DNA of 64,000 nt from a virus, in the IMG/VR virus record IMGVR_UViG_3300044957_000346, positions 10,429 to 74,428 of that record, one strand, 5' to 3'. Below the pieces are notes generated by a model that was given only the letters and a program-made list of their open reading frames with translations, ran no database searches and had not been told where the DNA came from. A program made the position numbers and the translations under genes. Each line of letters opens with the position of its first letter. The stretch's first letter is position 1. Shown here piece after piece: positions 6,510 to 60,275 of the stretch.

Positions 6510-7215
6510 AAAATTGGAAGAAAAAATGCATGTATATGATTTATCAGTGGATGGAAATCATAACTTTTTCATAGGAAACAAACCAACTTTAACATCAAAT
6601 TGTGATTTTTTAACGACTGAAGCTCAGGCATCTCTTCGTAATTTGATGGAAACATATAGTCAAACTACGAGGTTTATTTTGACTTGTAATTATGTTGAGA
6701 AGATCATCAAGCCTCTTATTAGTCGTTGTCAAGTGTTTGATATTGAACCGCCTACTCCAAAGAATGTAGCGATTCATATCAAGAATATCTTGGATAAAGA
6801 GAATATTAAGTACGAATTGCCATCTCTTAAGAACGTATTGGATGATTTTTATCCAGATGTACGGAAGATTATCAACTTCGTACAACAGAATAGCACTAGT
6901 GGTACATTGAAGATTGTCAAAAATCAAAATGCAAGTTTTGATCTTAAAAACAAAATTATTGAACTTCTGAAGGGTTCAAAAACAAACTCAAGTGCGTTTA
7001 ATGATATTCGACAACTTGTAAATGACGCGGGTGCAAAAGTATATGACGAACTGTATAGTGAATTGTATGTCAGAACAAAAGAATATGCTCCTAATAAAGA
7101 AACTTCAGTAATTATTGATATAGCAGAACATACTTATCAAAGTAGCATGGTTGTGGATAAAGAAATTACGTTCATGGCTTGTATTGCTAAATTGATAAAA
7201 ACAATCGGTAAATGA
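6481..7215 (+). CDS. gp44: Clamp loader piece 3: IntC2 (40 aa) + 204-aa extein
   Basis: MVKIKIKSIKK...VYDLSVDGNHNFF...TSN|CDFLTTEAQASLR, FILTCNY, LISRC; GAGGGT SD upstream. Confidence 0.9.
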   Translation: MVKIKIKSIKKLEEKMHVYDLSVDGNHNFFIGNKPTLTSNCDFLTTEAQASLRNLMETYSQTTRFILTCNYVEKIIKPLISRCQVFDIEPPTPKNVAIHIKNILDKENIKYELPSLKNVLDDFYPDVRKIINFVQQNSTSGTLKIVKNQNASFDLKNKIIELLKGSKTNSSAFNDIRQLVNDAGAKVYDELYSELYVRTKEYAPNKETSVIIDIAEHTYQSSMVVDKEITFMACIAKLIKTIGK

Positions 7216-8312
7216 TAAAGAAACTGGCAAGAATAGTTAATAGTAAACCAGTCATTCTTTCATCTGTCGAAATAAACGACATAGGTAATATTAAATATAT
7301 TGGTCAAAGCGGCACTAGCGGTTATGCTAGTGCCGCTAAAGGATATTTAGCAGACTATGTATTACGTAATGTATCTGTTAGTTGGGTACCTTTAATATTT
7401 GACAATAGTAACAATGACAAAAAGTATTATGTAGATGCTTTGGCTGAGAGCACGATAGGTATATCATACGATAGTTACGATACTTTAATATTACACAGTA
7501 CGCCGGATATTTGGAACGATTTACTGTTGACGCACAGAGATAGAACTAAAAATATAGTAGGATATTGTACTTGGGAAACAAACAAACTTCCTCCAAAGTG
7601 GATAAATTCTATTAATCTTGTATCGGAGGTGTGGGTACCATCTGTCTTTAATAAAGAATGTTTTATAAATTCAGGAGTAAAATCTGATATAAAAGTTGTA
7701 CCTCATATATGGCATCCTCAAAAGTTAATAGACAAAGATAACATAACCATATATGATCATGTTAGAAATGTGGTATCAAAGAGTAAATATACATTTTATA
7801 GTATTGGAGAATTAAATTTCAGAAAAGGTATAGAGGATTTGGTAAAAACATTTGATAAATTTAACGATGATTATCCAGATACTCAACTAATATTAAAAGT
7901 TCATTATAAAGAGTACTCTCAAGTTAATAAAAAATATTGTATAGATATTCTAAGTAAATTAACAAACAAACTAGGCAAATCAATTTATCTTATACTAGAT
8001 AATATAAGTAATAAACAAATTTTAGCTTTACATAGTTTTGGTGATTGTTATGTTAGTCTAAACAAAGGTGAGGGATTTGGTTTAACTATATTTGACGCGT
8101 TTAATTATGGTAATAAAGTTATTACTACAGGTTATGGTGGTCAAGTAGATTATCTCGGTTTAGATTATGAGGGATTAGTAAAATATAAAATAGATAAAGT
8201 AAGTGGTATGGAGTCGTTTAGCACTAATTATTCTATAGATCAAGAATGGGCATATCCAAATCTAGATAGTGCTTATGAATTAATGAAAAAATGTTATGAA
8301 GCTAAATTTTAA
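7212..8312 (+). CDS. GT4-like glycosyltransferase
   Basis: SGYA, WET, VPS, RKG, GEGFGL..DA motifs. Confidence 0.85.
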   Translation: MIKKLARIVNSKPVILSSVEINDIGNIKYIGQSGTSGYASAAKGYLADYVLRNVSVSWVPLIFDNSNNDKKYYVDALAESTIGISYDSYDTLILHSTPDIWNDLLLTHRDRTKNIVGYCTWETNKLPPKWINSINLVSEVWVPSVFNKECFINSGVKSDIKVVPHIWHPQKLIDKDNITIYDHVRNVVSKSKYTFYSIGELNFRKGIEDLVKTFDKFNDDYPDTQLILKVHYKEYSQVNKKYCIDILSKLTNKLGKSIYLILDNISNKQILALHSFGDCYVSLNKGEGFGLTIFDAFNYGNKVITTGYGGQVDYLGLDYEGLVKYKIDKVSGMESFSTNYSIDQEWAYPNLDSAYELMKKCYEAKF

Positions 8313-25220: not shown

Positions 25221-26627
25221 TTGTTATTTATAACAAATAACATTGTTATGATAAAATTTGTAGAAAAAAATGACGACCCACTTTTAGTACGATTTGAAGT
25301 TAACTATAATTGCGTCAATGAAAAGGTTCTTATATTATGGGAGGACGAAAAAACTTTAATTCCACAATATTCTGACTTTTTATCCATATCACAGAATGGT
25401 ATATACTATTGTACATTAAATAAGTCTCTCAATTTTTTTAAGAATGATTTAAATTTTAAAATAATAAGCTTAAAAACATATGAAGTTTTATTTTGTTATA
25501 AATTTATAAATCTGTCATTCTTAAGAGAAAAAAATATATTATACATTTCTCAAAATAACCATACTGGATATAGTTACGCTGCCAAAAATTATATATATCA
25601 ATTATTACAACAGGGGTATAATATAACGTGGGATGTTTCAAAATTTGGAAATTCTTCATATAAGGCTTGTAATGATTATGAAAAACTAGTTGCCGATTGT
25701 ATAAATAAAAATATTAATTATGATGCGGTTATAATACATCATGTACCAGACATATGGGCAGATATTGCAAAAACTATACCCAGAGGTAAAAAAATATATG
25801 GATTAACCGTTTGGGAAACTAATAAATTACATGAAGATTGGGTTAATTTTATAAATAATAGCGGAGTAGATGAGTTGATCGTTCCTTCATTTTTCAATCA
25901 AAAAATTTTTAAAAACAGCAAGGTAAACAAAAAAATAAATGTTTGGCGTCACGATATATTTCCGTTCACAACAAATAACAATTTAGATTCGGAAAAAATA
26001 TTTTCTAGATTTTATTATTATGATAATAACAAGTTTACAAACAAAGATGTGGATGTTAAATCTATTATAAAAAATAGAACGGTGTACTATAATATAAGTC
26101 AGTATAATGAACGAAAAAATATAGATCAAGTATTAAAAACTTTTTGCAAAAAATTTAAAAAATCTGATAATGTTTGTTTGTTTATTAAAACATTTTTCAA
26201 AGAATTTTCAGAATGTCAAACAGAAATGTTAAAATATAAATTTATGAACATACTTCGTGAATATAAAGATATTCCTCCCATAATTTTTTGTTTTGACAAT
26301 TTAAACAACGATGAGATTAATTTCATACATGAATTTGGAGATGTATATTTTACATTAAATCGTGGAGAAGGATTTGGTCTTTGTACATATACCGCAAAAA
26401 AAATTGGAAATAAGGTTATATGTGGTAAATTCGGTGCGGAAAAAGAATTTTTAGGAGAGAATGATATAGTGTTGGACTATACATTAGTAGACACATTTAA
26501 TATGGAGGTATACCACAATTGGTACGAAAACCAACAGTGGGCATCATATGATTTTGATTTGGTATTGTCTAAGTTGAGATATTTTCCAAAAACAAATAAA
26601 AAATTATATAATTATACACATGATTAA
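25221..26627 (+). CDS. GT4-like glycosyltransferase
   Basis: TGY..AA, WET, VPS, RKN, RGEGFGL; paralog of ORF 7212. Confidence 0.8.
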   Translation: MLFITNNIVMIKFVEKNDDPLLVRFEVNYNCVNEKVLILWEDEKTLIPQYSDFLSISQNGIYYCTLNKSLNFFKNDLNFKIISLKTYEVLFCYKFINLSFLREKNILYISQNNHTGYSYAAKNYIYQLLQQGYNITWDVSKFGNSSYKACNDYEKLVADCINKNINYDAVIIHHVPDIWADIAKTIPRGKKIYGLTVWETNKLHEDWVNFINNSGVDELIVPSFFNQKIFKNSKVNKKINVWRHDIFPFTTNNNLDSEKIFSRFYYYDNNKFTNKDVDVKSIIKNRTVYYNISQYNERKNIDQVLKTFCKKFKKSDNVCLFIKTFFKEFSECQTEMLKYKFMNILREYKDIPPIIFCFDNLNNDEINFIHEFGDVYFTLNRGEGFGLCTYTAKKIGNKVICGKFGAEKEFLGENDIVLDYTLVDTFNMEVYHNWYENQQWASYDFDLVLSKLRYFPKTNKKLYNYTHD

Positions 26628-27297: not shown

Positions 27298-29736
27298 TTA
27301 TCTTATTCCTTTTCTTTTTTTGTAATCGTCTAACGCGGCATTAAGTGCTTCCTGTGCTAACACACTACAGTGAATTTTAACTGGTGGAAGTCCACCCAAT
27401 GCTTCTACTATGTTATCATTGCTAAAATTTTTTTCAAGATCTTCTATTGTTCTACCCTTAATAAGTTCGGTTGCCACACTAGAAGCAGCTATAGCACTGC
27501 CACAGTTATGTGACATTGCTCTTAATACAAAGAAACAGTTTGAACCTTCATTTAATTCTAAATCATAAACAATATAATTGTCATTAGATTTTTCCAATCC
27601 TCTTAATTCATTAACATGTGTAATTTCTTTTTTTGATTTTAATGCAATTCCATTATGAATAAATCTTTGAATATCATTAATGCAAGTATCCAATTCATTT
27701 TTTTCAACAAACATCACATCAAAACCAGCAGATGAATAATCTTTTCTTTTTTGTATCATCCATCCTTGATTTTCACGATTTTGCATAAAATGAGGTAAAT
27801 TTTTAGTATAAACTTCAATTACTTTTTTTTGACCATTTACTTTAAAATCAGGATTAAATCTTTTTCCATCTGGTGTGTTTATCCAAAACTTATAATCTCC
27901 TACGTATCTTAAATCTAGATTTTCATTTACAAATTTATTAATAAACTTTTTTTCTAATAAAGTTGGTCTTTTCCACTGATCTTTTTTAATTCCCTCTTGC
28001 CAGTTTTTAACATATTCTGGATTTTTCCACATTTTTTTACAAGAAATGCTTGTTTTAAAACTAGAAATTTCAAGATTTTTTCTTTTGTATTTTTTTTGAT
28101 TCTGAGGCAATTCTTTTTGTTTCATCAATCCAAGATTATTTCTTTTTGAAATTTTTTTTGAATTGATATCTTTTAACCATTGTTGTTTTCTAACATTATT
28201 AATTGAACGGAGTTCTCGTTCTGTCATTTCCAATACTTCCATTCCAATTTCAAAATTTTCTGTTACTAATGGTCTATTATCTGCGCCCCACCAAACATGG
28301 TCTTTAGTGCAAATTATTTTTTTCCTTAATCCAAAATCTAATACACATAAATCATCGGAAGATACTTCTTTTTTAACAATATTTTTAACAGTATTTTTAA
28401 CTACAGAGCTTCCATTCCATGTCCAAATTTGATCACCTATTTTTAAGTTTTTAATGGATGTATATCCGTTTGGAGTAGCAATTGGACTATTACCACCTAA
28501 GCATCCAAATGTCTTGAATCGAGCATCAATAACTTTATTGGTTTGTTCATCGATTCTGAGACTAATCTTCATTATATCACCACAATTTTTAACGACTATT
28601 CCTTCTTCAACATTCAGGGTGATACGTGATAAAACAATATAATTATTATTTTCCTCAACTTGTAATGTATATGTTTGAATTTCTCCAATATATTCTCGTT
28701 TGATTATATTGTGATTATAATGTTTGCATTCATCAAAAAACTCAGTCCATGATGGAAATCTTGTTGATAAAGACTGTGGAATTTTATTTTGTTTGGCATA
28801 AGATCGCCAAAGATTAGCGGTCAACTTACCGTGTTGTTTATATAAATTATTTCCTATTTTGAATAAATCTTCATCCGAATATCCTAACCACTTCGGATTT
28901 TTATTTCTCGGCTTAGAAGCGAATTTATATTTCCATTCATCGGACGTTTTATGATAACAATTATTATTTCCTTTTTGTCTTAGAGATATTAACTTCCTCT
29001 GTTCTTCGGTGGCCAATTTTGAAAAATGATTTGCCAATTCACTTTTGTCATCAAACTTGTTAATGTTTTCCAATAAAATGTCTTTATTAATACATACATC
29101 AAATGTTTTTGGTCTATCCCAATTTGGGTTTGTCAACTTAGTATGATCTGATTTTGGTAATCCTTGCAAATTACTAATACAGTTATTTTGTTTGTTTTCA
29201 TCTATGTGATGTATATCATATCCTATAGTATTATGGTCAGGATTGTGAAATTTATAAATTTCAATGTGTTCTTTCCTATGTTTGGTTTTTCTAATTTCCC
29301 AATATCCATTTTTGATTATTTTTCGTTTGAATGGATAAATAGAATCATCACTTGTTAATAATTTATTTTCAACATATTGTTTTTTAGGACGAGTGAGAAA
29401 TTTATGATCTTCCGTACATGTTATTGTACCGCCATCATTTAATGTCAATTTATATACTTTTTTGACACCAGATACAACTCCTATAGCATTTTTTATTTCA
29501 AATAAATTTGTTTTAGTATTAAAGCTCCAAACAGGGGTTATTTTGTTTACTAAATTTTTAATAGGAGTATGTAAATTACCATCCGCTGTTGCTATTAAAG
29601 TATCACCATCAAAACATGCTGCAGCCCCTACTTCACCTATAGCGTTTGCTTCTTTTATGTCACCCATATTTCTGGGATTCATAAAATGATCCATTACAGT
29701 TTGATTATATAGAGTATAAGATTCATTCATACCCAT
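27298..29736 (-). CDS. iscU: Fe-S cluster scaffold IscU/NifU-N with two inteins (mature about 135 aa)
   Basis: Exteins join to VMDHFMNPRNMG...GAAA-CGDIMKI...FKTFG-CGSAIAASS...GGLPPVKIHCSVLA. Confidence 0.93.
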   Translation of the reverse strand: MGMNESYTLYNQTVMDHFMNPRNMGDIKEANAIGEVGAAACFDGDTLIATADGNLHTPIKNLVNKITPVWSFNTKTNLFEIKNAIGVVSGVKKVYKLTLNDGGTITCTEDHKFLTRPKKQYVENKLLTSDDSIYPFKRKIIKNGYWEIRKTKHRKEHIEIYKFHNPDHNTIGYDIHHIDENKQNNCISNLQGLPKSDHTKLTNPNWDRPKTFDVCINKDILLENINKFDDKSELANHFSKLATEEQRKLISLRQKGNNNCYHKTSDEWKYKFASKPRNKNPKWLGYSDEDLFKIGNNLYKQHGKLTANLWRSYAKQNKIPQSLSTRFPSWTEFFDECKHYNHNIIKREYIGEIQTYTLQVEENNNYIVLSRITLNVEEGIVVKNCGDIMKISLRIDEQTNKVIDARFKTFGCLGGNSPIATPNGYTSIKNLKIGDQIWTWNGSSVVKNTVKNIVKKEVSSDDLCVLDFGLRKKIICTKDHVWWGADNRPLVTENFEIGMEVLEMTERELRSINNVRKQQWLKDINSKKISKRNNLGLMKQKELPQNQKKYKRKNLEISSFKTSISCKKMWKNPEYVKNWQEGIKKDQWKRPTLLEKKFINKFVNENLDLRYVGDYKFWINTPDGKRFNPDFKVNGQKKVIEVYTKNLPHFMQNRENQGWMIQKRKDYSSAGFDVMFVEKNELDTCINDIQRFIHNGIALKSKKEITHVNELRGLEKSNDNYIVYDLELNEGSNCFFVLRAMSHNCGSAIAASSVATELIKGRTIEDLEKNFSNDNIVEALGGLPPVKIHCSVLAQEALNAALDDYKKRKGIR
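27505..28503 (-). mobile_element. IscU intein 2 (333 aa) with PD-(D/E)xK/Vsr-like domain
   Basis: CLGGNSPIATPNG, CTKDH, PT.LE...NPDF...VIEVY, VYDLEL...SHN|C. Confidence 0.9.
28585..29616 (-). mobile_element. IscU intein 1 (344 aa) with HNH domain
   Basis: CFDGDT block A, CTEDHKF block B, IHHIDENKQNNCISNL, TYTLQVE..NNY...VKN|C. Confidence 0.9.
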
Positions 29737-29738
29737 AA

Positions 29739-30845
29739 TTATATTCCTATTTGCTGTAAATCGTGAATTACCATTTTTTCTACAAGTTGTTTAAAATATG
29801 TCTTTGGAATCCAGTTTAATTCATTTCGTGCTTTTGTACTATCTCCGAGTAATAAATCTACTTCTGCGGGCCTGTAGAACTTGTGATTTATTTTAACTAA
29901 TACACTATTTGATGGATCGTATCTATTTGCATCTTTTACGCTAATACTAAATTCTGCATTTTCGGCTTCTCCGTGCCATATTCCATCAATGTCGGCAGCT
30001 TTAAAAGCTTCAAATACAAATTCTTCAATAGTATGAGTTTCATTGCTGGATAGTACATATTCTTTTGGTTCATTTTGATTTAACATTTTCCAAATACCGT
30101 CAACAAAATCTTCGGCATCACTCCAATCTCTGCTAGCTTTAACATTTCCCAGTTCAATACTGTCAAACGGTTTACCTTCTAAAAGCGCTTTTTTAATTCT
30201 AGCTACGCCCTTAGTGATTTTACGAGTTACAAACTCTTCACCTCTTCTAGTTCCTTCGTGATTGAATAATAAACCTTGTATTGCAAACAGATTGTAAGAT
30301 TCACGATATACTTTGACCAACTGTCGTGCTGCCGATTTGCTTGCGCCATATGGACTACGAGGTTTATATGGATGTTTTTCATCTTGCGGAACATATTCTA
30401 CGTCGCCGTACTCTTCACTACTTCCAGCATTATAAAATCTACAAGATGGCTTGTATTGTTTAATAGCCTGCAATATATGAATTATACCGCACGTATTACA
30501 TTCCCAGGTTTGTGATGGAAAATCCCAGGAAGATCCAACAAATGATTGCGCTGCTAAGTTTATAAAATAATCTGGCTTTAAATTTTCAACAATATTGTAT
30601 ATACTATGTGCATCGCTTAAATCAAAATTTACAAGATGAAATCTTGGATTGTTTTCTAAATGTACGATGTTGTCGTGGTTTTTGATGCTCAATCTTCTTG
30701 TTCCGCCAAAAATTATGTAATCGGTATTTTTTAGCAAATAATCAACCATGAAGCTACCATCTTGACCAGTCACTCCTGTAACGAATACTGTTTTTTTATC
30801 TTTGTTTAAAAACGAAACTGCATCTTTCACATTATATGTTTGCAT
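29739..30845 (-). CDS. gmd: GDP-mannose 4,6-dehydratase
   Basis: TGVTGQDGS, NLAAQSFV, SPYGASK, FNHE..RRGEEFVTRKI, RPAEV. Confidence 0.95.
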   Translation of the reverse strand: MQTYNVKDAVSFLNKDKKTVFVTGVTGQDGSFMVDYLLKNTDYIIFGGTRRLSIKNHDNIVHLENNPRFHLVNFDLSDAHSIYNIVENLKPDYFINLAAQSFVGSSWDFPSQTWECNTCGIIHILQAIKQYKPSCRFYNAGSSEEYGDVEYVPQDEKHPYKPRSPYGASKSAARQLVKVYRESYNLFAIQGLLFNHEGTRRGEEFVTRKITKGVARIKKALLEGKPFDSIELGNVKASRDWSDAEDFVDGIWKMLNQNEPKEYVLSSNETHTIEEFVFEAFKAADIDGIWHGEAENAEFSISVKDANRYDPSNSVLVKINHKFYRPAEVDLLLGDSTKARNELNWIPKTYFKQLVEKMVIHDLQQIGI

Positions 30846-37002: not shown

Positions 37003-38133
37003 ATGAATACTTGGAAACTTAACGAAAACCACTTCACTTGGTTAGATAGGTTAAAAATTTGCAAGTTTTTTTTAAATACTAAAAATTTTTGGACATATGG
37101 TAAATATGTTAAAAAGTTTGAAGAAGAGATGACAAAATATGTAGGCGTCAAACATGCGTTATTTGTTTCAAGTGGGTCAACGGCCAATACAGTATTAGCA
37201 TATTATTTAGGAACCGTGACGACCAAAAAGAAGATTATATTTCCATCTGTGACTTGGGCAACATCAATTACACCATTTGTTAAGTGCGGATTTGAACCAA
37301 TATTTGTAGATGTGTCATTAAATGATTTATCGGCAAATTTAGATGAAATTGAAACTATACTTCAAAATGACAAAGATATCGCTTTGATATTTGTCACATC
37401 CCTATTGGGTGTATCTCCCGATATTGGTAGATTAAAACAAATAGAAGCTAAGTATGGTGTTAGGGTTATGTTGGATAATTGCGAAAGTACACTTAGTAGT
37501 TATAATGGAAAAAATTTAAGCAGTTATTTCACATCTACTACTAGTACATATTTTGGACATTTGTTACAAAGTGTAGAAGGCGGATTTGTGTTCACCAACG
37601 ATGATTCAGAATACGAAATGTTCAATATGATTCGAAATCATGGTATGTACAGACATTTGGAGCCAAACAGAACCGAAAAGTATAGAAATAAAGATGTAGA
37701 TTCTAGGTTTGATTTTTATACCATTGGAAATAATTTTAGAAATAGTGACATTCACGCATTCATAGGATTATTAGACTTTTCTAGAACCAATAAATATATA
37801 AGTCATAGAAAAGATTGTTATCAACACTTTGTTAAGTGTCTTAATAAAGATAGATACTACACCATTGATTTTAATGATGAAAATATTATGTTTTCGTTGC
37901 CTATAATCTGCAAATCATCGTCTGACCTACAATCAATTAAAGATTATTGTGACAAAAACAATATAGAGTATAGACCGATTGTAGGTGGTAATATTTTGAA
38001 ACAAACCGCATTTAAAAAATATTCGTATAAATCATATGAAAACGTTGACACCATACATCAATGTGGAATTTATATTGGGTTACATTATGGTGTCAACAAA
38101 TCTCAAATAGAAGAGTTTTGTTCTTCTATTTAA
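37003..38133 (+). CDS. PLP-dependent DegT-family enzyme, ColD/E1-type dehydratase
   Basis: VSSGSTAN, DNCE, STYFGHLLQSVEGG with His at the usual Schiff-base Lys position. Confidence 0.75.
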   Translation: MNTWKLNENHFTWLDRLKICKFFLNTKNFWTYGKYVKKFEEEMTKYVGVKHALFVSSGSTANTVLAYYLGTVTTKKKIIFPSVTWATSITPFVKCGFEPIFVDVSLNDLSANLDEIETILQNDKDIALIFVTSLLGVSPDIGRLKQIEAKYGVRVMLDNCESTLSSYNGKNLSSYFTSTTSTYFGHLLQSVEGGFVFTNDDSEYEMFNMIRNHGMYRHLEPNRTEKYRNKDVDSRFDFYTIGNNFRNSDIHAFIGLLDFSRTNKYISHRKDCYQHFVKCLNKDRYYTIDFNDENIMFSLPIICKSSSDLQSIKDYCDKNNIEYRPIVGGNILKQTAFKKYSYKSYENVDTIHQCGIYIGLHYGVNKSQIEEFCSSI

Positions 38134-51700: not shown

Positions 51701-52224
51701 GTTATGGAACCAGATTCAAATGAGCAAATTTTAGCGAATCTAATGGATAATATCAGAAATTTACATGAAGAAAACGCTAAGCTATCTCAAGAGGTTGAAC
51801 GATTGCGAGAAGAAAATAAAGAATTAAATCGTAAATTAAAAAGTATACAAGCATTGTTCTTATGAAGAATATTTTTTGGGAAAAATGTTCCTCCATCAAT
51901 TATTGGTATGATGTTGATTTTGATTTATGTTGGAGTTGCATCACTGTTTGATAAAGGCGAAGAATGATTATACATGTTCCAGACAACATAAAACAAAAAT
52001 ATCCAAACTTTGAGTTTAGAGGTAGACAAAAAGAAGTTAAGGGTAGAATTGTTATTGATGCGTTTAATCGTGCAACCGATCAAAGTTTTCAATATAGCTT
52101 TGACGAGGACTTTTTTTTGGTTTGCTGAACAATGTGAGGGTATGATAAACAATAGAACCCATTATTAATTTGATGGGTTTTATTTTTTGTATATATTTAT
52201 ACTTTATAGGAATATTTTAAACTT

Positions 52225-52896
52225 ATGAGCGATAAACTAAACGAAACATTTGCAAAACATTCAGGTTTGTTAAAGAACAAACTAAATGAAGGATGGAATG
52301 ACAATGAAGATAAGATGTTGGACTATCTTCAACGATTAGCAGACAATGATAGTGATAATTTTTATGATGCAATGCGTGATTTCAAAGGATCATTTGGATA
52401 CACACCAAGTATTCGTAAACGTACTTCTTCACACAGTTCTCGTCAATCATTGACTGGTAAAACATTGTATTTTTATAATGTACCATCTGACAAACAAAAT
52501 GATGCGTATCGTTTGCTTAAGAAGACCAAGAGTGGAAAGTGGTATAGTCTTGTTCCAAATCCAGAAGCCGATAAACTATTTGGAAAAGGTAGACCTTGGA
52601 CCGCAAAACGATTGACACAGATTATCGAAGATTTAGCTAAACCACAAGTTAAAGAAGCTGTGGATCCATCTTTATTAAAATTAATAGATGAAGTTATACG
52701 CGACACAAATGTTTTGGTTGTAAATAACTTAAAAATAATAAAAAATATAATATCTAAAGAACCAATTGATAAAGCTAAATTGGATGTAGCTTTAAGTAAT
52801 TATAAACGTTATTTTAATAGAGACAATGGTGGTACACCTGAAGTAATTCGTGGCACAACCATGCAAAGCAAACTAGACAAATTATCAAACGGTTAA
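52225..52896 (+). CDS. Modular putative virion protein
   Basis: KLNE, KLNE and VKE boundary motifs; TATTTATA and AGGA upstream. Confidence 0.55.
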   Translation: MSDKLNETFAKHSGLLKNKLNEGWNDNEDKMLDYLQRLADNDSDNFYDAMRDFKGSFGYTPSIRKRTSSHSSRQSLTGKTLYFYNVPSDKQNDAYRLLKKTKSGKWYSLVPNPEADKLFGKGRPWTAKRLTQIIEDLAKPQVKEAVDPSLLKLIDEVIRDTNVLVVNNLKIIKNIISKEPIDKAKLDVALSNYKRYFNRDNGGTPEVIRGTTMQSKLDKLSNG

Positions 52897-53012
52897 CTTG
52901 GATTGAAAACAGACATTCTACTATGGGTGAATCCAACATCGTTAAAGATATTGATGCAGGGTTTATTGCTGTAGGACAAAATTGGAACGGTAAACATGTG
53001 GTACAAACACAA

Positions 53013-53151
53013 AAGAGTGTACTGGACTTTTTTGGAAACCTATTACCCCGAAATATTTGAAAATAAAATAAATCGGTAGGGTTTTTATTACTATGTATAT
53101 GCTGATAGTCAATAACGGCTATCATAACACACACAAACACAAAAGGAAATA
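53013..53151 (+). repeat. 139-bp direct repeat A, copy 1 (structured leader with SD)
   Basis: Matches 54489-54627 with 2 mismatches. Confidence 0.92.
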
Positions 53152-53152
53152 T

Positions 53153-53368
53153 ATGTCAGATAATAATAAAACTCCCTACGAACTACGTTGGGATATATTG
53201 AGAGAAATGATCACCATCACTCAAAATGAGTGGTTCACAAAGAAAGATATTGCTGAACGTAATGCAGAAAAGAGTGGAAAACAAATAGAATATTTGGGCG
53301 ACTTTCCTCTACAAACTGCGGTTGAAAGAGCGGAGAATGTATATAATCAATTCATCTGTAAGAAATAA
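53153..53368 (+). CDS. Small hypothetical protein
   Basis: AAGGA SD; KTPYELR..IL...A...Y.FI. Confidence 0.65.
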   Translation: MSDNNKTPYELRWDILREMITITQNEWFTKKDIAERNAEKSGKQIEYLGDFPLQTAVERAENVYNQFICKK

Positions 53369-53400
53369 TAAATAAATAAAAAGTTAATGTTCCGTGTATT

Positions 53401-53471
53401 AAAACACTTGACCACTGTGACCACCCGTGTTATAGTGGTCTTGTTATTGGTACACACAAGTAAATCAAAAA
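53401..53471 (+). promoter_or_regulatory. About 70-bp direct repeat B, copy 1: sigma70 promoter with dyad
   Basis: TTGACC(53408)-N17-TATAGT(53431); near-identical copy at about 56500-56568. Confidence 0.85.
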
Positions 53472-53474
53472 ACT

Positions 53475-54467
53475 ATGATTGAAAAATTGACTCAACTGCA
53501 ACAAGATAATTTGCCCGGATACGTTAAAAAATGGGTTGATATTGGAATCAATACCGATGAGATTGACTTTTTGGAATGCGTAAATCAAATCAAGAAAGCG
53601 TACGAAGTGGTTGGCCTTGCTTCTCCTACTTATTTTATCGGTCCAGTAAATAATCCGTATGAAGCCGCAGTAGCAGAATACATTATTGGCCAATTTAGCA
53701 AAGAAAAAAAACAGTTCAACAATCCGGCGCATTTGAATCAAATGGTCTTGGAAGAAATACAAAATCAAATTAAGAGTAGTAATACTGGGAATACAAAGAG
53801 TAAATTGTCCATTTCTAATCAGGCGTATGGGTTTCAAGAGTATTGGTTGAGTTACTATGATTTTTTTATAAATGAATGCAACCTTGCAATTAATCTCGTT
53901 AAACCGCTTATTGATCTTAGCAAAGTTTGCGGTTGGTGGACTCCGTTGAAGGACGTGGCTATCATTCAGCACCGGCCTCTTGAAATTCATCGTGACAACG
54001 CCGGTCGTTTACACAATGCTGATGGTGCTGCCGTCAGATATCTAGGTATTGGTGCTGATGTCTTTTTTATTCACGGTGTTCGCGTGACCAAAAAGATAAT
54101 TGACCGTGATTTCACTGCTGATGACATCGAAAAAGAATCTAATGCTGAAGTTCGGCGTGTGATGATTGAGATATATGGACAAGCCAACTTCTTGATTGAA
54201 AGTTGTGCAGTTAAAATTCATGAGGACGATTTTGGTGTATTATATCGAAAAGACTTACGCAATGACGAGCCATTGATGATGGTAAAAGTTGTTAATTCTA
54301 CTATTGAATCCGATGGAACATTCAAGGATTATTTTATTCGTGTTGACCCTAACGCTTATGGTGGAATCAAAACTGCACACGCTGCTGTAGCTTCGACATG
54401 GAGAAATAAGGATGGAAGCATGCTCTTTAATAAACCAGAAGACTATAATTGTGATATTCAAACTTAA
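53475..54467 (+). CDS. DUF6745-like protein
   Basis: MIEKLT..Q...W..IG, WLSYYDFF, GWW.P......RP..IHRD..GRLHN.DG.AV, HGVRV, NAE.RR, NST.E.DG..K.Y..RV.P...A..A.A.T. Confidence 0.75.
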   Translation: MIEKLTQLQQDNLPGYVKKWVDIGINTDEIDFLECVNQIKKAYEVVGLASPTYFIGPVNNPYEAAVAEYIIGQFSKEKKQFNNPAHLNQMVLEEIQNQIKSSNTGNTKSKLSISNQAYGFQEYWLSYYDFFINECNLAINLVKPLIDLSKVCGWWTPLKDVAIIQHRPLEIHRDNAGRLHNADGAAVRYLGIGADVFFIHGVRVTKKIIDRDFTADDIEKESNAEVRRVMIEIYGQANFLIESCAVKIHEDDFGVLYRKDLRNDEPLMMVKVVNSTIESDGTFKDYFIRVDPNAYGGIKTAHAAVASTWRNKDGSMLFNKPEDYNCDIQT

Positions 54468-54488
54468 TCAATAACTAACAAATCATAC

Positions 54489-54627
54489 AAGAGTGTACTG
54501 GACTTTTTTGGAAACCTACTACTCCGAAATATTTGAAAATAAAATAAATCGGTAGGGTTTTTATTACTATGTATATGCTGATAGTCAATAACGGCTATCA
54601 TAACACACACAAACACAAAAGGAAATA
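54489..54627 (+). repeat. 139-bp direct repeat A, copy 2
   Basis: Matches 53013-53151. Confidence 0.92.
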
Positions 54628-54629
54628 AT

Positions 54630-54956
54630 ATGTGCAAAAAATCAAATAAAAAATCGGTATATCGTCAAGGTGATGTCTTGATTCTGCCAATCAATGAAAT
54701 TCCTAACAATTTGAACCGAACAAAACGTGTGACTCTTGCTCTTGGAGAAGTCACCGGACATCATCATAGCATTTCAGATGGTGCTGTTGGATACGCGGAT
54801 GACTCAGATGCCTTGGCAGATTATTTTGAGGTGAATGATGAATCTGCCGATTTAACTCATCAAGAACACGATACTATCACTCTTCCAAAGGGTAAATACC
54901 GTAAAGTCATTCAAGTAGAATACACTCCAGAAGCTATCAGAAATGTTGCTGATTGA
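54630..54956 (+). CDS. His-rich RQGDV protein (usual neighbour of DUF6745-like genes)
   Basis: YRQGDV...LA.GEVTGHHH...L.HQEH..I.LP.G.Y....Q.EY.P...R.VAD. Confidence 0.7.
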   Translation: MCKKSNKKSVYRQGDVLILPINEIPNNLNRTKRVTLALGEVTGHHHSISDGAVGYADDSDALADYFEVNDESADLTHQEHDTITLPKGKYRKVIQVEYTPEAIRNVAD

Positions 54957-54993
54957 GTATGTATAAGTAATCAAAATAATGACAGACAGTTTT

Positions 54994-55019
54994 AAGGGAT
55001 TATATAAAAATCCCTTTTT
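54994..55019 (+). terminator. Terminator-like hairpin abutting the first array ATG
   Basis: AAGGGATT/AATCCCTT stem plus T-run, ATG at 55020. Confidence 0.55.
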
Positions 55020-56467
55020 ATGACATTATCCGAAGAACAAATTCAACCAGTTCGGAACCAAGTTTGTGACCAAGTTCGGATCCAAGTTCGGAACCAAGTT
55101 TGTGACCAAGTTTGTGACCAAGTTCGGACCCAAGTTCGGAACCACGTTTGGCCAAACTTGGTACCAAGTTTTGGACGAAGTTTGGGACCAAGTTTGGAAC
55201 CGAACCAAGTTCGGAACCAAATTTGGAACCAAGTTCAAGAATGAACTTATGACATTATCCGAAGAACAAATTCAACCAGTTCGGAACCAAGTTTTGGACG
55301 AAGTTTGGGACCAAGTTGGGAACCAAGTTCGGATCCAAGTTGGGAACCAAGTTTGGGACGAAGTTTTGGACGAAGTTTGGAACCAAGTTGGGAACCAAGA
55401 TCGGATCCAAGTTGGGAACCAAGTTTTGGACGAAGTTTGGTTCCAAATTTGGAACCAAATTTGGAACCAAGTTCAAGAATGAACTTATGACATTATCCGA
55501 AGAACAAATTCAACCAGTTCGGAACCAAGTTTTGGACGAAGTTTGTGACCAAGTTTGTGACCAAGTTCGGAACCAAGTTGGGGACCAAGTTGGGGACCAA
55601 GTTCGGAGCCAAGTTCGGAACCAAGTTCGGGGCCAAGTTCGGGGCCAAGTTCGGGGCCAAGTTCGGGGCCAAGTTCGGAACCAAGTTGAGAGCCAAGTTT
55701 GGAACCAAGTTTGGAGCCAAGTTCGGGGTCAAGTTCGGGGTCAAGTTCGGAACCACGTTGGGAACCAAGTTCAAGAATGAACTTATGACATTATCCGAAG
55801 AACAAATTCAACCAGTTCGGAACCAAGTTTTGGACGAAGTTTGGAACCAAGTTTTGGACGAAGTTCGGAACCAAGTTGGGAACCAAGTTGGGAACCAAGT
55901 TCGGGACCAAGTTTGGAGCCAAGTTTGGAGCCCAGTTCGGGACCAAGTTCGGAACCAAGTTCAAGAATGAACTTATGACATTATCCGAAGAACAAATTCA
56001 ACCAGTTCGGAACCAAGTTTTGGACGAAGTTTGGGACCAAGTTTGGAACCGAACCAAGTTCGGAACCAAATTTAGAACCAAGTTCAAGAATGAACTTATG
56101 ACATTATCCGAAGAACAAATTCAACCAGTTCGGAACCAAGTTTGGAGCCAAGTTCGGAACCAAGTTTGGAGCCAAGTTCGGGACCAAGTTTGGAACCAAG
56201 TTTGGAGCCAAGTTCAAGAATGAACTTATGACATTATCCGAAGAACAAATTCAACCAGTTCGGAACCAAGTTTTGGACGAAGTTTGGAACCAAGTTGGGA
56301 ACCAAGTTTGGAACCAAGTTGGGAACCAAGTTCGGAACCAAGTTGGGGACCAAGTTGGGAACCAAGTTCGGAACCAAGTTCGGAGCCAAGTTGAGAGCCA
56401 AGTTGGGAACCAAGTTGAGAGCCAAGTTGGGAACCAAGTTTGGAATGTAAAATCAATATTTTTATAA
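55020..56467 (+). repeat. Seven-unit array of mini-ORFs: constant junction plus variable 12-bp tandem repeats
   Basis: ATGACATTATCCGAAGAACAAATTCAACCAGTTCGGAACCAAGTT at 55020, 55249, 55487, 55785, 55975, 56098 and 56228; units 1-6 end CAAGTTCAAGAATGAACTT. Confidence 0.97.
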
Positions 56468-56499
56468 AAATCATACTAAACAAGATAAACATCATTAAA

Positions 56500-56568
56500 A
56501 AAACACTTGACCACTGTGACCACCCGTGTTATAGTGGTTTTGTTGTTGGCACACAAGTAAATCAAAAA
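56500..56568 (+). promoter_or_regulatory. Direct repeat B, copy 2: sigma70 promoter
   Basis: TTGACC(56507)-N17-TATAGT(56530). Confidence 0.85.
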
Positions 56569-56584
56569 TAAAAAACTAAAACAT

Positions 56585-56920
56585 ATGAAGAATAATTCAC
56601 TGGTTCAATTCGTTCGGGATCGTAAGGGTCAACCCCGTGGTATGGTAATTGCTACTGTGATTGATAATACTATCCGAGTTGGTTGGAGTTATACTAATAC
56701 AAAGGCTGGGGACCGATTCAATAAGAGTCGTGCATACCAAATTGCACTTGGTCGTGCTGATACTGGTCAGGGTAACAAGGTTATGACCCCTCGTTCGGTT
56801 TACAAGGTTATGAACAAACTTGCTGTTAGGGCTGAACGATATTATAAGAATGTGCCAATGGAGTCTGGTCATACGAGCTATGTTCCTGCTGACTTTTCTG
56901 AAGATATTCGTGGCGAATAA
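56585..56920 (+). CDS. Hypothetical early protein
   Basis: Follows promoter B; GWS......D.F.K......A..RA. Confidence 0.65.
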   Translation: MKNNSLVQFVRDRKGQPRGMVIATVIDNTIRVGWSYTNTKAGDRFNKSRAYQIALGRADTGQGNKVMTPRSVYKVMNKLAVRAERYYKNVPMESGHTSYVPADFSEDIRGE

Positions 56921-56945
56921 TTTAAATAATTAATAATTATATATC

Positions 56946-57272
56946 ATGGATCGTTCTAAACAAAAGGGTACATTTACTGGTTCAATTGATGAGCTATTGA
57001 AGCGTTGTGCGAGTATTGATGTAGATAAACTTTATGCTGACTGTGAAAAGAGAGAATGCATTGATGCATTGATGCGAGAGATGGAGTGTACTGAAGAAGA
57101 AGCGGACATTCTTTATAAAGAGATTGCTTTGACTGAAGTAAAAAACACCGTAGACGATCTTGTCAAGGAAGGTCTTGTTGAAATAATTGGGTTTACCGAA
57201 GATGGTGAACCGCTGTTTGATCTGACTGAACTTGGGAAAAAAGCTCAGAATCAAATTAAAAAGGGTAAGTAA
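56946..57272 (+). CDS. Hypothetical protein (winged-helix-like C-terminus)
   Basis: LVKEGLVE...LTELGK. Confidence 0.6.
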   Translation: MDRSKQKGTFTGSIDELLKRCASIDVDKLYADCEKRECIDALMREMECTEEEADILYKEIALTEVKNTVDDLVKEGLVEIIGFTEDGEPLFDLTELGKKAQNQIKKGK

Positions 57273-57287
57273 TAATTATTTTAAGTT

Positions 57288-57364
57288 GGCCTCGTAGCTC
57301 AATTGTATAGAGTACTCGGTTTCTACCCGAAGGGTTGCAGGTTAGAGTCCTGCCGGGGCTACCA
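57288..57364 (+). tRNA. tRNA-Arg(UCU)
   Basis: Cloverleaf GGCCTCG/CGGGGCT, anticodon loop TT-TCT-AC, T-stem GCAGG/CCTGC, encoded CCA. Confidence 0.9.
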
Positions 57365-57476
57365 CTTTTTTGGTAATTTTTCAAATACTAATAATATTTA
57401 TAAGTTACCTCAAGAACTTTTTAAAAGTTCTTGATCTTTGAAAATTGAATGTTAAGATAGTTAAGTAGTAAGCGAT

Positions 57477-57565
57477 TGTTCTTTACCGCATGGTGGGAGA
57501 AGCACTCCTCTGGAACATCTATGAATGGCGGAACTGCCTCGGCCTTTAACCGAAGGGGGTCACCA
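57477..57565 (+). ncRNA. Candidate structured RNA between the two tRNAs
   Basis: GC-rich island with stems TGTTCT/GGAACA, GGAG/CTCC, CCGC/GCGG, TCGG/CCGA, ending CACCA. Confidence 0.35.
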
Positions 57566-57568
57566 AAC

Positions 57569-57768
57569 AAAGAATACAGAAACAGTATATATAAATATGA
57601 TTTTGCTTGGTTAAAAGAAAAGATTGATGTAGAAATAGATGGTGGTACACATAAAACAGAAAAAGTTAAAAAAAAATAGATAGTAGAAAAGACGAATTTA
57701 GTAGACAAGATGGTTGGCTTGTAGTAAGATTTGATGCTGACCAAGACAGAAAAATAAAGTATAATTAA
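57569..57768 (+). pseudogene. DUF559/Vsr-like endonuclease remnant
   Basis: YKYDFAW...VEIDGGTH, shift in the A9 run, then D.RKD.....GW.VVRF. Confidence 0.7.
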
Positions 57769-57783
57769 TTTAAAATTTGTAAT

Positions 57784-57861
57784 GCGCTTGAAGCCACAGT
57801 AGACCGGCAGCAGACTTTTAATCTGTCAATGGTGAGGTTGCAACTACCTCCGGGCGCACCA
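57784..57861 (+). tRNA. tRNA-Lys(UUU), atypical
   Basis: GCGCTTG/CGGGCGC acceptor, GCAGA-CTTTTAA-TCTGT, GAGGT/ACCTC T-stem, CCA. Confidence 0.8.
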
Positions 57862-57941
57862 ATTTAAACTGGTAACAACAATAAACAATGAAATCATTTG
57901 GACCTACGAAAATGTCTTTGCCGGATAGTAGCATCATCTGA

Positions 57942-60275
57942 ATGAAAACTATTGCTTCAAAGAACACGGTAGTCAACAGTCCGAACCTCACTTCGTCTGG
58001 CTTCACGATTCGTCAAAAGAATCTTGCCAAGATCATCAATATTGTTGAGAATGACATCTATTCCGACAAGATTCTTGCAGTTATTCGTGAGTATAGCTGT
58101 AACGCCTATGATGCCAACGTGGAAGCTGGCAAGCGTGATGTGCCCATCGTGGTGAATATGCCTAGTCGGCTCAGTCCCGAGTTCAAAGTGCGTGACAACG
58201 GAAATGGATTGACCGAGCAGGAAATCCATGAGGTCTACACGTCCTATGGTGAATCTACCAAGGAAAACAGCGACGACTATATCGGTCAGCTTGGTATCGG
58301 CAGCAAAAGCGGTTTTGCTTATGGTGACAATTTTGTTGTAACCAGTTGGAAGAACGGCACCAAGACGGTTTACAACGCCGTCAAGGGCAGCGACGTGCGT
58401 GAAATGGTGAAGCTCTACAGCGAGCCTAGCAACGATCCGTCTGGTATCGAGGTCAGCATTCCCGTCAAGACTGGCGACGAAGCTGTTTTCAAGAGCAAGA
58501 GCATAAATTTCTTCAAGTATTGGCAGACCCAGCCTCACATTGTTGGTGTTTCCGAGCAGGAAACCAAGACCACCGATGTTGTGATCATTGACGGTGGTGA
58601 CTGGAAGGTGGTGGATACTGAGAACAGTTATGCCAGAAACCATCGGGCTATTGCCATCATGGGCAACATTTCGTATCCTATTCAGTGGGATTTGGTTATG
58701 GAAACGCTGAACAAGAACAATCGTTGCGACTTTCGCACCAACAGCATTGTGCGATTTATCACCAACAACAGCGTGGTGATTCGTTTCAAGATTGGTGAAA
58801 TTCAGATGGCTCCCAGCCGTGAGGCTTTGCAGTACACCGAGCATACTGTTAGCAATATCGTCAAGAAACTGGAGCAGATTTGCGGCGAGCTTGAAAACAT
58901 TTTGATTGCGCAGATAAATTCTGCCAAGACGTTGTGGGAATATAAGTGCAATATCAATTGTGTGTTCAGCCGTCAGGTCAAAGGAGACCGGTATCTGAGC
59001 AATTATGGCTTGCTGGAAAACCTTGAGCTTATCTTTGAGCTTGTGAAGCCCAAGCTGACGTTCAACGGTGTCAACGTGTTGAATCCAAATTATGATGGTA
59101 TGAACGAGTGGGATCGCAATCTAGGCAAGGTTAACATCGAAGAACGAGTCAAGAATTTCACCAAGGCGTTTGATCCGCTCGTTTATGCCTACAGCTTGAC
59201 CGTCCGCAACAAGCTCAACATTGAGACTGCCTCTCATACCAATCATCTTTTCAGGTTTACTGCGAGTGATCGTAACCAGATCATGATTATGGATATGGAC
59301 CGCAAAACGCACGTCAAGCAGTGCCTCAAGTGGTACATTGGCACCAACAACATTGGACGTTTGTATGTTCTGTACTTCGGCAATGATGCTGTCAAGACTT
59401 CGTTCTTTGCCAAGAATGATATGTCTGGTGCTACAATCGTGAAGTTCAGCGACGTGTTTGCCAAGTTCAAGCCGCTCATTCCTAAGCGTAAAAGCACTGG
59501 AAAGCTGGAGGATAATACCGTCAAGTGCGGTATTCTCAATCCCACCAACCGCTTTAGCTATTACAGTCGCAATACTCTTGACAAACTCTGGGAATATCGT
59601 TCCGAGGTGAACCTCAAGACTGAATCTGGATACTATTTGGATTACAGCAACAACGAGTCTGTTACCATCAATGGCGAGAAGATGGGTGTGTGTATGTTTA
59701 TGGGAGTTGTGAATGAACTGCATTACGAGCGTATTTTGAATCTGACGCACATCAACAAAGTGCATGGTTTTGGTACGACGATTATCAACGGCAAAAAGTT
59801 TGCCCAAAACAAGTCGAACTGGACCAACATTGTTGATTATATTGAGACTGAATTGAAGAATCTCAACAAGGATGAGTATGTATTTTCTGCACTTATGAAT
59901 GAGCGCATCGAGAAGTTCGATCTGAATCTGTTCTACATCCATAAGGGTGTGCTCAATCAGTTTGTGACTCGTCTGACTCATGACAATATGTTTTCTGATC
60001 TGTATAAGATAATGCCCGAGATTAGTGAGAGCACCAATGAAAAGATGAAACTTCTGGAGCGTATCAAGGTGTCGTGTGTTCAAACCTATCACCAAAAGGC
60101 TCTCAAGCAAAAAATTGAGAACGGTTTCAATTTGATTGCTGCCAAGTATCCCATGCTCAAGACTCTGATTATGTCGTTCAATTGGAACAATATCGACACC
60201 ATGCTTCAGGCGTCAGTCGTTGATGAGATTGTCAACTATATTAATTTTGTTGACAGCACCACCAAGAAGGTGTAA
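57942..60275 (+). CDS. rIIA: rIIA-like protein (N-terminal GHKL ATPase)
   Basis: IYSDKI.AVIRE..CNA.DA, RD.G.GL, YGESTK, GQLGIGSKS, PSREAL.Y. Confidence 0.9.
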   Translation: MKTIASKNTVVNSPNLTSSGFTIRQKNLAKIINIVENDIYSDKILAVIREYSCNAYDANVEAGKRDVPIVVNMPSRLSPEFKVRDNGNGLTEQEIHEVYTSYGESTKENSDDYIGQLGIGSKSGFAYGDNFVVTSWKNGTKTVYNAVKGSDVREMVKLYSEPSNDPSGIEVSIPVKTGDEAVFKSKSINFFKYWQTQPHIVGVSEQETKTTDVVIIDGGDWKVVDTENSYARNHRAIAIMGNISYPIQWDLVMETLNKNNRCDFRTNSIVRFITNNSVVIRFKIGEIQMAPSREALQYTEHTVSNIVKKLEQICGELENILIAQINSAKTLWEYKCNINCVFSRQVKGDRYLSNYGLLENLELIFELVKPKLTFNGVNVLNPNYDGMNEWDRNLGKVNIEERVKNFTKAFDPLVYAYSLTVRNKLNIETASHTNHLFRFTASDRNQIMIMDMDRKTHVKQCLKWYIGTNNIGRLYVLYFGNDAVKTSFFAKNDMSGATIVKFSDVFAKFKPLIPKRKSTGKLEDNTVKCGILNPTNRFSYYSRNTLDKLWEYRSEVNLKTESGYYLDYSNNESVTINGEKMGVCMFMGVVNELHYERILNLTHINKVHGFGTTIINGKKFAQNKSNWTNIVDYIETELKNLNKDEYVFSALMNERIEKFDLNLFYIHKGVLNQFVTRLTHDNMFSDLYKIMPEISESTNEKMKLLERIKVSCVQTYHQKALKQKIENGFNLIAAKYPMLKTLIMSFNWNNIDTMLQASVVDEIVNYINFVDSTTKKV

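Follow-up and report, generated by a model that had tools for sequence, protein, structure and literature searches.

The mini-gene array and its DUF6745 neighbour

The stretch analysed here, called the window, comprises 64,000 nucleotides (nt) of the IMG/VR virus record IMGVR_UViG_3300044957_000346 (positions 10,429 to 74,428 of that record, one strand, 5' to 3'). It carries a gene for a protein of the DUF6745 family, a gene for a small protein here referred to as the partner, and an array of mini-genes in which a constant peptide head alternates with hypervariable tracts of the tetrapeptide QVxx (Table 1). The constant part is a 45-nt head, ATGACATTATCCGAAGAACAAATTCAACCAGTTCGGAACCAAGTT, which is present in seven copies with 0 mismatches (at 55020, 55249, 55487, 55785, 55975, 56098, and 56228); there is no further copy in the window, and shuffled windows gave 0 matches. 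A 12-nt period extends across 55045-56445 with 117 copies according to Tandem Repeats Finder. The ATG-to-ATG lengths of the units are 229, 238, 298, 190, 123, and 130 nt, the last unit is 240 nt long, and the four regular units (238, 298, 190, and 130 nt) are all 10 mod 12. Units 2, 3, 4, and 6 encode a 13-residue head followed by (QVxx)n and a terminal QVQE before a TGA stop. At the junctions 4 nt lie between a stop and the next ATG, which is in the +1 frame, and 5 of the 6 neighbour pairs have ATGs spaced at 1 mod 3. The remaining units are less regular. Unit 1 is out of the QV register roughly from 55148 to 55205 (about 60 nt) and later returns to it, and unit 5 has a deficit of 5 nt that removes its own stop, so that it reads into unit 6 and the seven heads give six open reading frames (ORFs). 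A preliminary description, made from the letters of the DNA alone, had reported an invariant junction between 12-bp tracts and unit lengths of which four differ by multiples of 12, and recomputation gave the same result for both. It had also counted seven mini-genes with products of the type head-(QVxx)n..QE; seven is the number of heads but not of ORFs, and the product type is that of units 2, 3, 4, and 6 but not of unit 1, which leaves the register, unit 5, which is stopless, or unit 7, which ends in VKSIFL.

Each junction, e.g., 55231-55248, contains a perfect 7-bp inverted repeat (AAGTTCA-AGAA-TGAACTT) which covers the stop and ends just before the ATG. This inverted repeat includes a three-codon ORF (ATG AAC TTA TGA), which overlaps the neighbouring stop with its start and the neighbouring start with its stop. 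The small ORF may be left over from overlapping M-K-N-L-T heads of the kind seen in relatives.

Table 1. Position and main properties of the features of the module, in window coordinates.
Feature	Coordinates	Strand	Size	Remarks
Promoter-plus-stem-loop block, copy 1	53401..53456	+		PeSL-like; TTGACC, 17-nt spacer, TATAGT overlapping a strong hairpin; 5' of the DUF6745 gene
DUF6745 protein gene	53475..54467	+	330 aa	PF20530; without tetrapeptide tract; inter-domain loop at about residues 104-113
Intergenic block	54481..54627	+	147 nt	97% identity to 53005-53151
Partner protein gene	54630..54956	+	108 aa	small all-beta protein; phrog_27831, E 5.8e-16
Weak hairpin, then TTTTT	54994..55019	+		-9.4 kcal/mol, z -2.05; abuts the first mini-gene ATG
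Mini-gene 1	55020..55244	+	74 aa	intact head; QV register lost mid-tract, restored before QVQE and stop
Mini-gene 2	55249..55482	+	77 aa	query matching tract-bearing PF20530 proteins, best E 4e-37
Mini-gene 3	55487..55780	+	97 aa	longest
Mini-gene 4	55785..55970	+	61 aa	unit chosen for docking
Units 5 and 6, one ORF	55975..56223	+	82 aa	second head at 56098
Mini-gene 7	56228..56467	+	79 aa	distinct tail ..QVWNVKSIFL, then stop
Promoter-plus-stem-loop block, copy 2	56500..56555	+		PeSL-like; module end; starts the next gene

It is conceivable that the array is an assembly artefact, in which a short-read assembler expanded or chimerised a single repeat-bearing gene. The record is a metagenome assembly, and the DUF6745 tract is a systematic breakpoint of short-read assemblers, as viral contigs of 35-60 kb often end inside it (loci L016, L023, L033, L034, L037, L038, and about 20 more). 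The whole array is spanned by no Logan contig of the lake-water runs, and the order and number of units are those of the assembled record alone. A contig of run X3 departs from the array after 56166 into other sequence (CAATTTAGAATGTTGTAAATATTAATATGC), and run X2 carries a small indel or 1-nt shift variant at 55103-55105 in unit 1; both differences suggest strain variants or a second array. On the other hand the content of the array is reproducible across runs. Logan contigs of four lake-water runs, from four samples, match the unique pieces 55370-55480, 55693-55790, 55824-55980, and 56411-56529 exactly, and two of these, 55693-55790 and 55824-55980, cross junctions. Independent assemblies of about 40 other loci, which come from many projects, furthermore show multi-unit architecture, and a single collapsed gene would still be without a DUF6745 domain. 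An artefact is therefore exceedingly improbable.

Relation of the tracts to fused DUF6745 proteins

The DUF6745 protein of the window matches PF20530 with E 2.5e-44 and 151.5 bits (cut-off 27) over model positions 28-194 of 206, whereas the mini-proteins (units 1 and 3) have no match to this family. The homology of the mini-proteins is limited to the repeat tract of tract-bearing members, a segment outside the Pfam domain. When a mini-protein was used as query against longer proteins 136 matches were obtained, mostly to PF20530 proteins, and an exhaustive search with a mini-protein profile gave 2,547 cluster representatives, the best of which are 350-600 amino acids (aa) long with a tract starting around residue 70-130. 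These sequences have a fused architecture of N-terminal domain, (QVxx)n, and DUF6745 domain, in which the tract can reach about 80 units (L066). In alignment A1 the tract of protein P0114 sits exactly at the short loop that is bare in the window DUF6745. The preliminary description had stated that DUF6745 proteins often carry an internal QV tract and had found the adjacent DUF6745-like gene to be without one at that site; both points are confirmed by these comparisons.

A well-defined example of the fused form is gene 38 of the Mycobacterium phage prophiGD102-1 (MW584211.1), which is annotated as hypothetical and carries a tract of about 55 xxQL units at the same loop. It is preceded by a homologue of the partner gene, which is also annotated as hypothetical. 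A tblastn search of the phage collection with the window DUF6745 gave a single record, the prophage of Mycobacterium abscessus. The fused proteins and the window locus share the repeat itself (x-x-Q-V/L with variable W/R/G and D/N/S/G), its place at the loop that is bare in the window protein, and the adjoining gene with the RQGD and HxEH motifs. They differ in that the fused tract is one in-frame segment, whereas in the window it is encoded by seven tandem mini-genes that have a start, a head, and a stop of their own (the stop being lost in unit 5). An N-terminal M..LT motif is present in 46 of 68 heads, in 29 of 75 DUF6745 N-termini, and in 167 of 2,914 background ORFs, and a few pre-tract segments of fused proteins resemble heads; this likeness is suggestive, and too short to prove from where the head derives.

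The preliminary description had proposed to compare DUF6745 homologues with and without an internal tract for adjacent arrays. A locus search with the single DUF6745 protein found nothing, and the comparison is based on 160 loci of DUF6745 relatives obtained by alignment-based scans and classified by script, the association being counted on complete genes. Of the 67 tract-less DUF6745 genes 33 have arrays of QV or SV mini-ORFs at their flanks, whereas none of the 46 tract-bearing genes does; the Fisher p of 4e-10 overstates independence because related loci cluster in the phylogeny. When lineages are roughly counted instead, arrays occur in 5 of 16 tract-less versus 0 of 25 tract-bearing lineages (p 0.006). 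Any 12-nt-periodic DNA outside the gene was seen at 37 of 58 tract-less and 5 of 55 tract-bearing genes, and the five tract-bearing cases are unrelated low-complexity DNA or contig edges. The proposed check thus came out as the preliminary description had anticipated. In a tree of the core domain arrays occur in several clades, i.e., the window clade, L124 with L105-L131, L112 and L039 (both with SVxx), and L106 (xxAT). The last two types of motif form arrays beside tract-less DUF6745 genes at L106 4683-6767 (xxAT), at L039 132-723 and 9551-10464, and at L112 23-661 (SVxx), and the architecture is consequently not bound to the QV motif. Arrays are common and not obligatory, as about 21 tract-less loci with adequate flanks have none within reach. 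The tract is absent from the core, present in separate adjacent genes, and fused in relatives at the same site, which is the pattern expected of a split form, and judged by these sequence comparisons the window locus is best described as a split and amplified form of a tract-bearing DUF6745 gene.

Coding, variation, and predicted binding of the mini-proteins

It is very probable, on the evidence of conservation, that the mini-ORF units are real genes and that incidental ORFs do not explain them. An ATG head of the M-K-x-L-T type is found in 177 of 199 tract frames from about 40 loci, and over a similar number of loci successive ATGs are spaced at 1 mod 3 in 98 of 105 cases. In relatives consecutive units either overlap, by 14, 17, 20, or 23 nt between stop and next start, or are separated by a 4-nt gap. 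By this start/stop geometry, together with the frame relation, the array would be a translationally coupled chain, and its units would be translated in vivo. Only 6 of 45 window genes have a Shine-Dalgarno site, and nothing can be read from the lack of such sites ahead of the mini-ORFs in a phage that rarely uses them. The possibility that programmed +1 frameshifting at the junctions yields one polyprotein was considered and rejected, as there is no slippery site or stimulator and the next ATG of relatives lies 14-23 nt before the stop.

Conservation across lineages is at the level of the peptide, while the codons change. The 15-residue head of the window aligns with MKLTKEHLKPVRKQV of the L095-L104 group; the head Ser codon alternates between AGT and TCT, and the Leu and Thr codons drift among lineages. 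Similarly the V codon of the tract is GTT in the window and L089, GTC in most lineages, GTG in L090, L091, and L153, and GTA in L039. Among the 98 in-register 12-mers of the window, of which there are 30 distinct ones in the array, the third position is near-fixed for the Q codon (96 of 98) and the V codon (98 of 98). In contrast positions 7, 10, and 11, which set the two x residues, are highly polymorphic, with C, T, or G at position 7 and A or G at positions 10 and 11. Recombinational homogenisation would hit all sites alike, and the contrast at the x sites thus points to selection for diversity of the x residues on a fixed QV scaffold.

These data bear on the alternative that the array is non-functional debris, i.e., a detached repeat that duplicates by slippage and in which ORFs are incidental because the 12-mer is stop-free in every frame. 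The tracts are indeed open in all six frames, and openness alone is consequently no proof of coding; units 1 and 5 are broken or irregular, and few mini-proteins are found among called proteins, a search for proteins of near length having given 5 matches only. However, debris would not be expected to keep the head peptide and the QV residues through synonymous codon changes between lineages, or to retain in about 40 loci a junction at which the QV frame is closed by a stop and the following ATG opens the +1 frame, and the polymorphism in the array is confined to non-synonymous positions. The debris explanation is in consequence regarded as quite improbable.

A second possibility is that the feature acts at the level of DNA or RNA, with the 12-nt repeats serving as protein-binding iterons or as a recombination hot spot like the repeated promoter/stem-loop blocks that bracket the module (see below). 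The presence of these blocks and of the inverted repeat AAGTTCA/TGAACTT at every junction would agree with such a role. Conservation is however at the level of amino acids and not of DNA, since arrays are built from CAAGTT, CAAGTC, or CAAGTG, and from TCTGTA in an array of the SV type, and tetrapeptide variants with QL and AT occur elsewhere. Moreover the tract is clearly coding inside DUF6745 proteins and no Rfam family matches it, all of which makes a DNA- or RNA-level function very improbable.

The variation in unit number and length can be followed in close relatives. The DUF6745 genes of the L095-L101 group share 98-99% DNA identity, while the lengths of the downstream units vary, always by multiples of 12 nt, a comparison that rests on short-read assemblies. 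Such differences fit slippage or unequal recombination within the repeats, and the behaviour of these relatives corresponds, as far as the assemblies tell, to that of contingency-type repeat slippage. The preliminary description had offered silent donor cassettes as an alternative to trans-acting peptides and had called the array a candidate undescribed diversification system; neither the cassettes nor a dedicated mechanism of diversification is upheld. A constant junction between variable tracts and arrays that vary between strains are features that silent cassettes of the vls/pilS type, or the substrate of a diversity-generating retroelement (DGR) or gene-conversion-type mechanism, would also show. 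But the units have their own ATG and stop, and the 74-kb record holds a sole DUF6745 gene, without a tract that could receive cassettes, and no second DUF6745 gene or second array; own starts and stops together with the lack of a tract-bearing acceptor argue against silent cassettes. Similarly the 74-kb record, which is about 21% of the genome by estimate, contains no match to the reverse transcriptase family RVT_1; the 12-mers have no template copy, and their variation, being of the kinds listed above, is not adenine-specific. Donor cassettes or a DGR are exceedingly improbable, and the 74-kb record gives, as far as its genes can be read, no sign of a dedicated diversification mechanism.

A possible binding of mini-proteins to the DUF6745 core was approached by structure prediction. 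The AlphaFold2 model of the DUF6745 protein has a mean predicted local distance difference test score (pLDDT) of 86.6, which falls below 50 at residues 104-106, and the loop at the tract site is predicted to be disordered. A complex of DUF6745 with unit 4 was predicted with a score of 0.75, the best of three controls reaching 0.01; in calibration this mark is reached by 58 of 80 solved complexes and by 2 of 110 mismatched pairs. At least 54% of the contacts are common to the three runs, and the docked mini-protein has a pLDDT of at least 68. The contacts with the least predicted error are between head residues 6-12 and DUF6745 residues 157-161, which lie in the nearly invariant segment GWWTPL..V, and the modelled tract runs along both DUF6745 domains with a helical contact period. 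The model, as a prediction, supports a putative binding of the mini-protein to the tract-less DUF6745 core. The proposal of the preliminary description that the repeat module was externalised into trans-acting peptides, which might be specificity subunits or decoys, gains support from the genomic association, the conservation of the peptides through codon drift, and the docking of one unit.

The partner protein may belong to the same system. A near-constant neighbour, it is found directly upstream or downstream of DUF6745 in about 105 scanned loci, irrespective of whether the tract is present, and it is predicted to be all-beta with a pLDDT of 78.8. Its invariant motifs (RQGD, GExTGHxH, HxEH, QxEY, and a C-terminal D) are reminiscent of a metal site. 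Searches of other resources were uninformative for both proteins. No match was found for DUF6745 in PHROGs at E 0.01 or better, or by Foldseek at E 0.001 or better, and the best VIA-align result (Z 5.0) is an unconvincing partial match to a START-like fold over 90 residues with a root-mean-square deviation of 3.9. For the partner, Foldseek gave nothing, the best Z was 2.8, and the ESM Atlas returned unnamed clusters only. PADLOC and NCBIfam contain no match for DUF6745, the partner, or the mini-protein, and no publication on DUF6745 and no function for it was found in the literature.

On balance it is probable that the array is a translated chain of mini-genes, detached from DUF6745, whose products are repeat rods anchored on the core and diversified by slippage and selection. 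The tract is homologous to the one that is found in cis, between the N- and C-terminal domains, in most DUF6745 proteins. Gene fission would have detached it from the DUF6745 gene in this phage lineage, and tandem amplification would have followed. The head would anchor each mini-protein onto the tract-less core, DUF6745 would act together with the conserved small partner and its metal-site-like motif, and a single core would encounter repeat rods of several lengths and surfaces. Differences between units would arise by slippage or unequal recombination in the 12-nt repeats without a dedicated mutator, and selection would maintain the diversity at the two x residues.

Several points weigh against this explanation. 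First, the intact ORFs are weak evidence alone when all six tract frames are open, and units 1 and 5 look like decay or assembly error. Second, the first ATG abuts a weak terminator-like hairpin (54994..55019) and no promoter is seen between this hairpin and the array. Third, tract-less loci without arrays exist, and the clustering of the loci in the tree reduces the weight of the association, as given above. Fourth, neither DUF6745 nor the partner has a convincing match to a solved fold. Fifth, the docking used custom alignments and may recall the fused architecture, and does not amount to independent proof of binding in trans.

In a different interpretation the mini-proteins are real and act independently of DUF6745, perhaps as decoys or binders of a host factor, their adjacency reflecting common descent only. 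The roughly 21 tract-less loci without arrays would then be unsurprising, the docking result could be a memory of the fused form, and the longest fused tracts, such as that of L066, far exceed any interface that a 330-aa core can offer, so that most of such a tract must point away from it. Arrays nevertheless strictly adjoin DUF6745 even between clades that share only some 40% identity, and the model places the heads, which are conserved, on the most conserved DUF6745 strand. Independent action is for these reasons considered unlikely. A more specific version of the anchored-rod explanation may be put forward tentatively, and is possible rather than probable. In this version one core would serve many inserts: rods anchored by their heads, drawn from a library that evolves quickly and varies in length and surface, would be supplied in trans to the conserved pair of DUF6745 and its RQGD/GHxH/HxEH partner.

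Genomic setting, known systems, and significance

The source of the window is a large uncultured lake-water phage with about 30% GC, represented by a 74-kb IMG/VR record with a completeness estimate of 21%. Five lake-water metagenome runs contain 85-90% of sampled words from the stretch, and a megablast search of GenBank phages with 53400-57400 gave no match. The module has the order promoter/stem-loop block, DUF6745, 147-nt repeated block, 108-aa protein, weak hairpin with T-run, array, and second promoter/stem-loop block, and rIIA and rIIB are encoded directly downstream of the array. Between the module and rIIA lies a tRNA-Arg gene (anticodon TCT, 57288-57364). The record further encodes helicases and several sugar-modifying enzymes. 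A sugar-modifying gene cluster (7212-8312, 25221-26627, 29739-30845, and 37003-38133) comprises two glycosyltransferases, a nucleotide-sugar epimerase, and an aminotransferase, and an 812-aa ORF (27298-29736) has helicase-like, HNH-like, and NifU-like matches in combination.

The 147-nt block occurs twice, at 53005-53151 and 54481-54627, each copy being located directly 5' of a small gene. Logan contigs show the block in both contexts, and the linked differences C>T at 54519 and T>C at 54523 separate the copies or strains. The two promoter/stem-loop blocks, which bracket the DUF6745/partner/array module, are 95% identical and consist of a sigma-70-type promoter with an upstream TG and a hairpin of -19.3 kcal/mol (z -4.5). 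Promoter-early stem-loops (PeSLs) are known from cassette borders in T4-like phages (PMC2839356; PMC4122927), and the blocks at 53401-53456 and 56500-56555 appear to fit the published description. As in the PeSL-flanked cassettes of the hyperplastic regions of T4-like phages, the module adjoins rIIA/rIIB and lies between two near-identical blocks (Arbiol et al., 2010, PMC2839356; Comeau et al., 2014, PMC4122927). The likeness is one of description, and PeSLs explain the movement of cassettes between genomes but not the mini-gene array inside this one.

Two other systems invite comparison. The preliminary description had called the architecture CRISPR-like, and constant sequence does alternate with variable stretches here as in arrays of clustered regularly interspaced short palindromic repeats (CRISPR). 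The analogy is visual only, because the stretches in place of spacers are 70-240 nt of low-complexity 12-nt repeats and not unique sequences, and the constant part is a start codon with a peptide head. There are no unique spacers of similar length, and an Rfam scan of 52000-58000 found no CRISPR repeat family, one tRNA being the sole match. The Vlp and Vsa systems of Mycoplasma are tandem sets of variable full-size surface lipoproteins, which have their own promoters and phase switches and vary by in-frame repeat slippage. They resemble the array in being tandem paralogues with a constant N-terminal part and in-frame repeats of fast-changing copy number. They differ from it in that the array encodes short phage peptides (60-100 aa) in a translationally chained row, which descend from a linker within a different protein. 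The literature searched on DUF6745, on tetrapeptide repeats in phages, and on PeSLs contained nothing on such an architecture, the PeSL papers alone being relevant. A chain of microgenes for variable repeat rods with a conserved anchor, located beside the parent protein, thus appears to be undescribed, while the underlying processes of gene fission, tandem duplication, and repeat slippage are ordinary.

Tract-bearing DUF6745 proteins are widespread, being encoded by phages and prophages of freshwater, marine, and soil origin and by the prophage of Mycobacterium abscessus. The split form is a natural experiment which separates the conserved core from the hypervariable tract, points to the head as candidate anchor, and demonstrates that a tract of this kind can stand on its own as a microprotein. 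The annotation of phages is also concerned, since the arrays clearly exemplify microgenes, 40-100 aa in size, which gene callers tend to overlook and which break short-read assemblies. If one core indeed serves many inserts, a single infection would deploy several variants for the job that the fused protein does with a single tract, and the module would represent an undescribed modular diversification of an early-expressed host-interaction or anti-defence factor, with a possible role in phage-host conflict. It is tempting to speculate that, if the units are interchangeable inserts, they would constitute a new viral route to protein diversification without a mutator enzyme.

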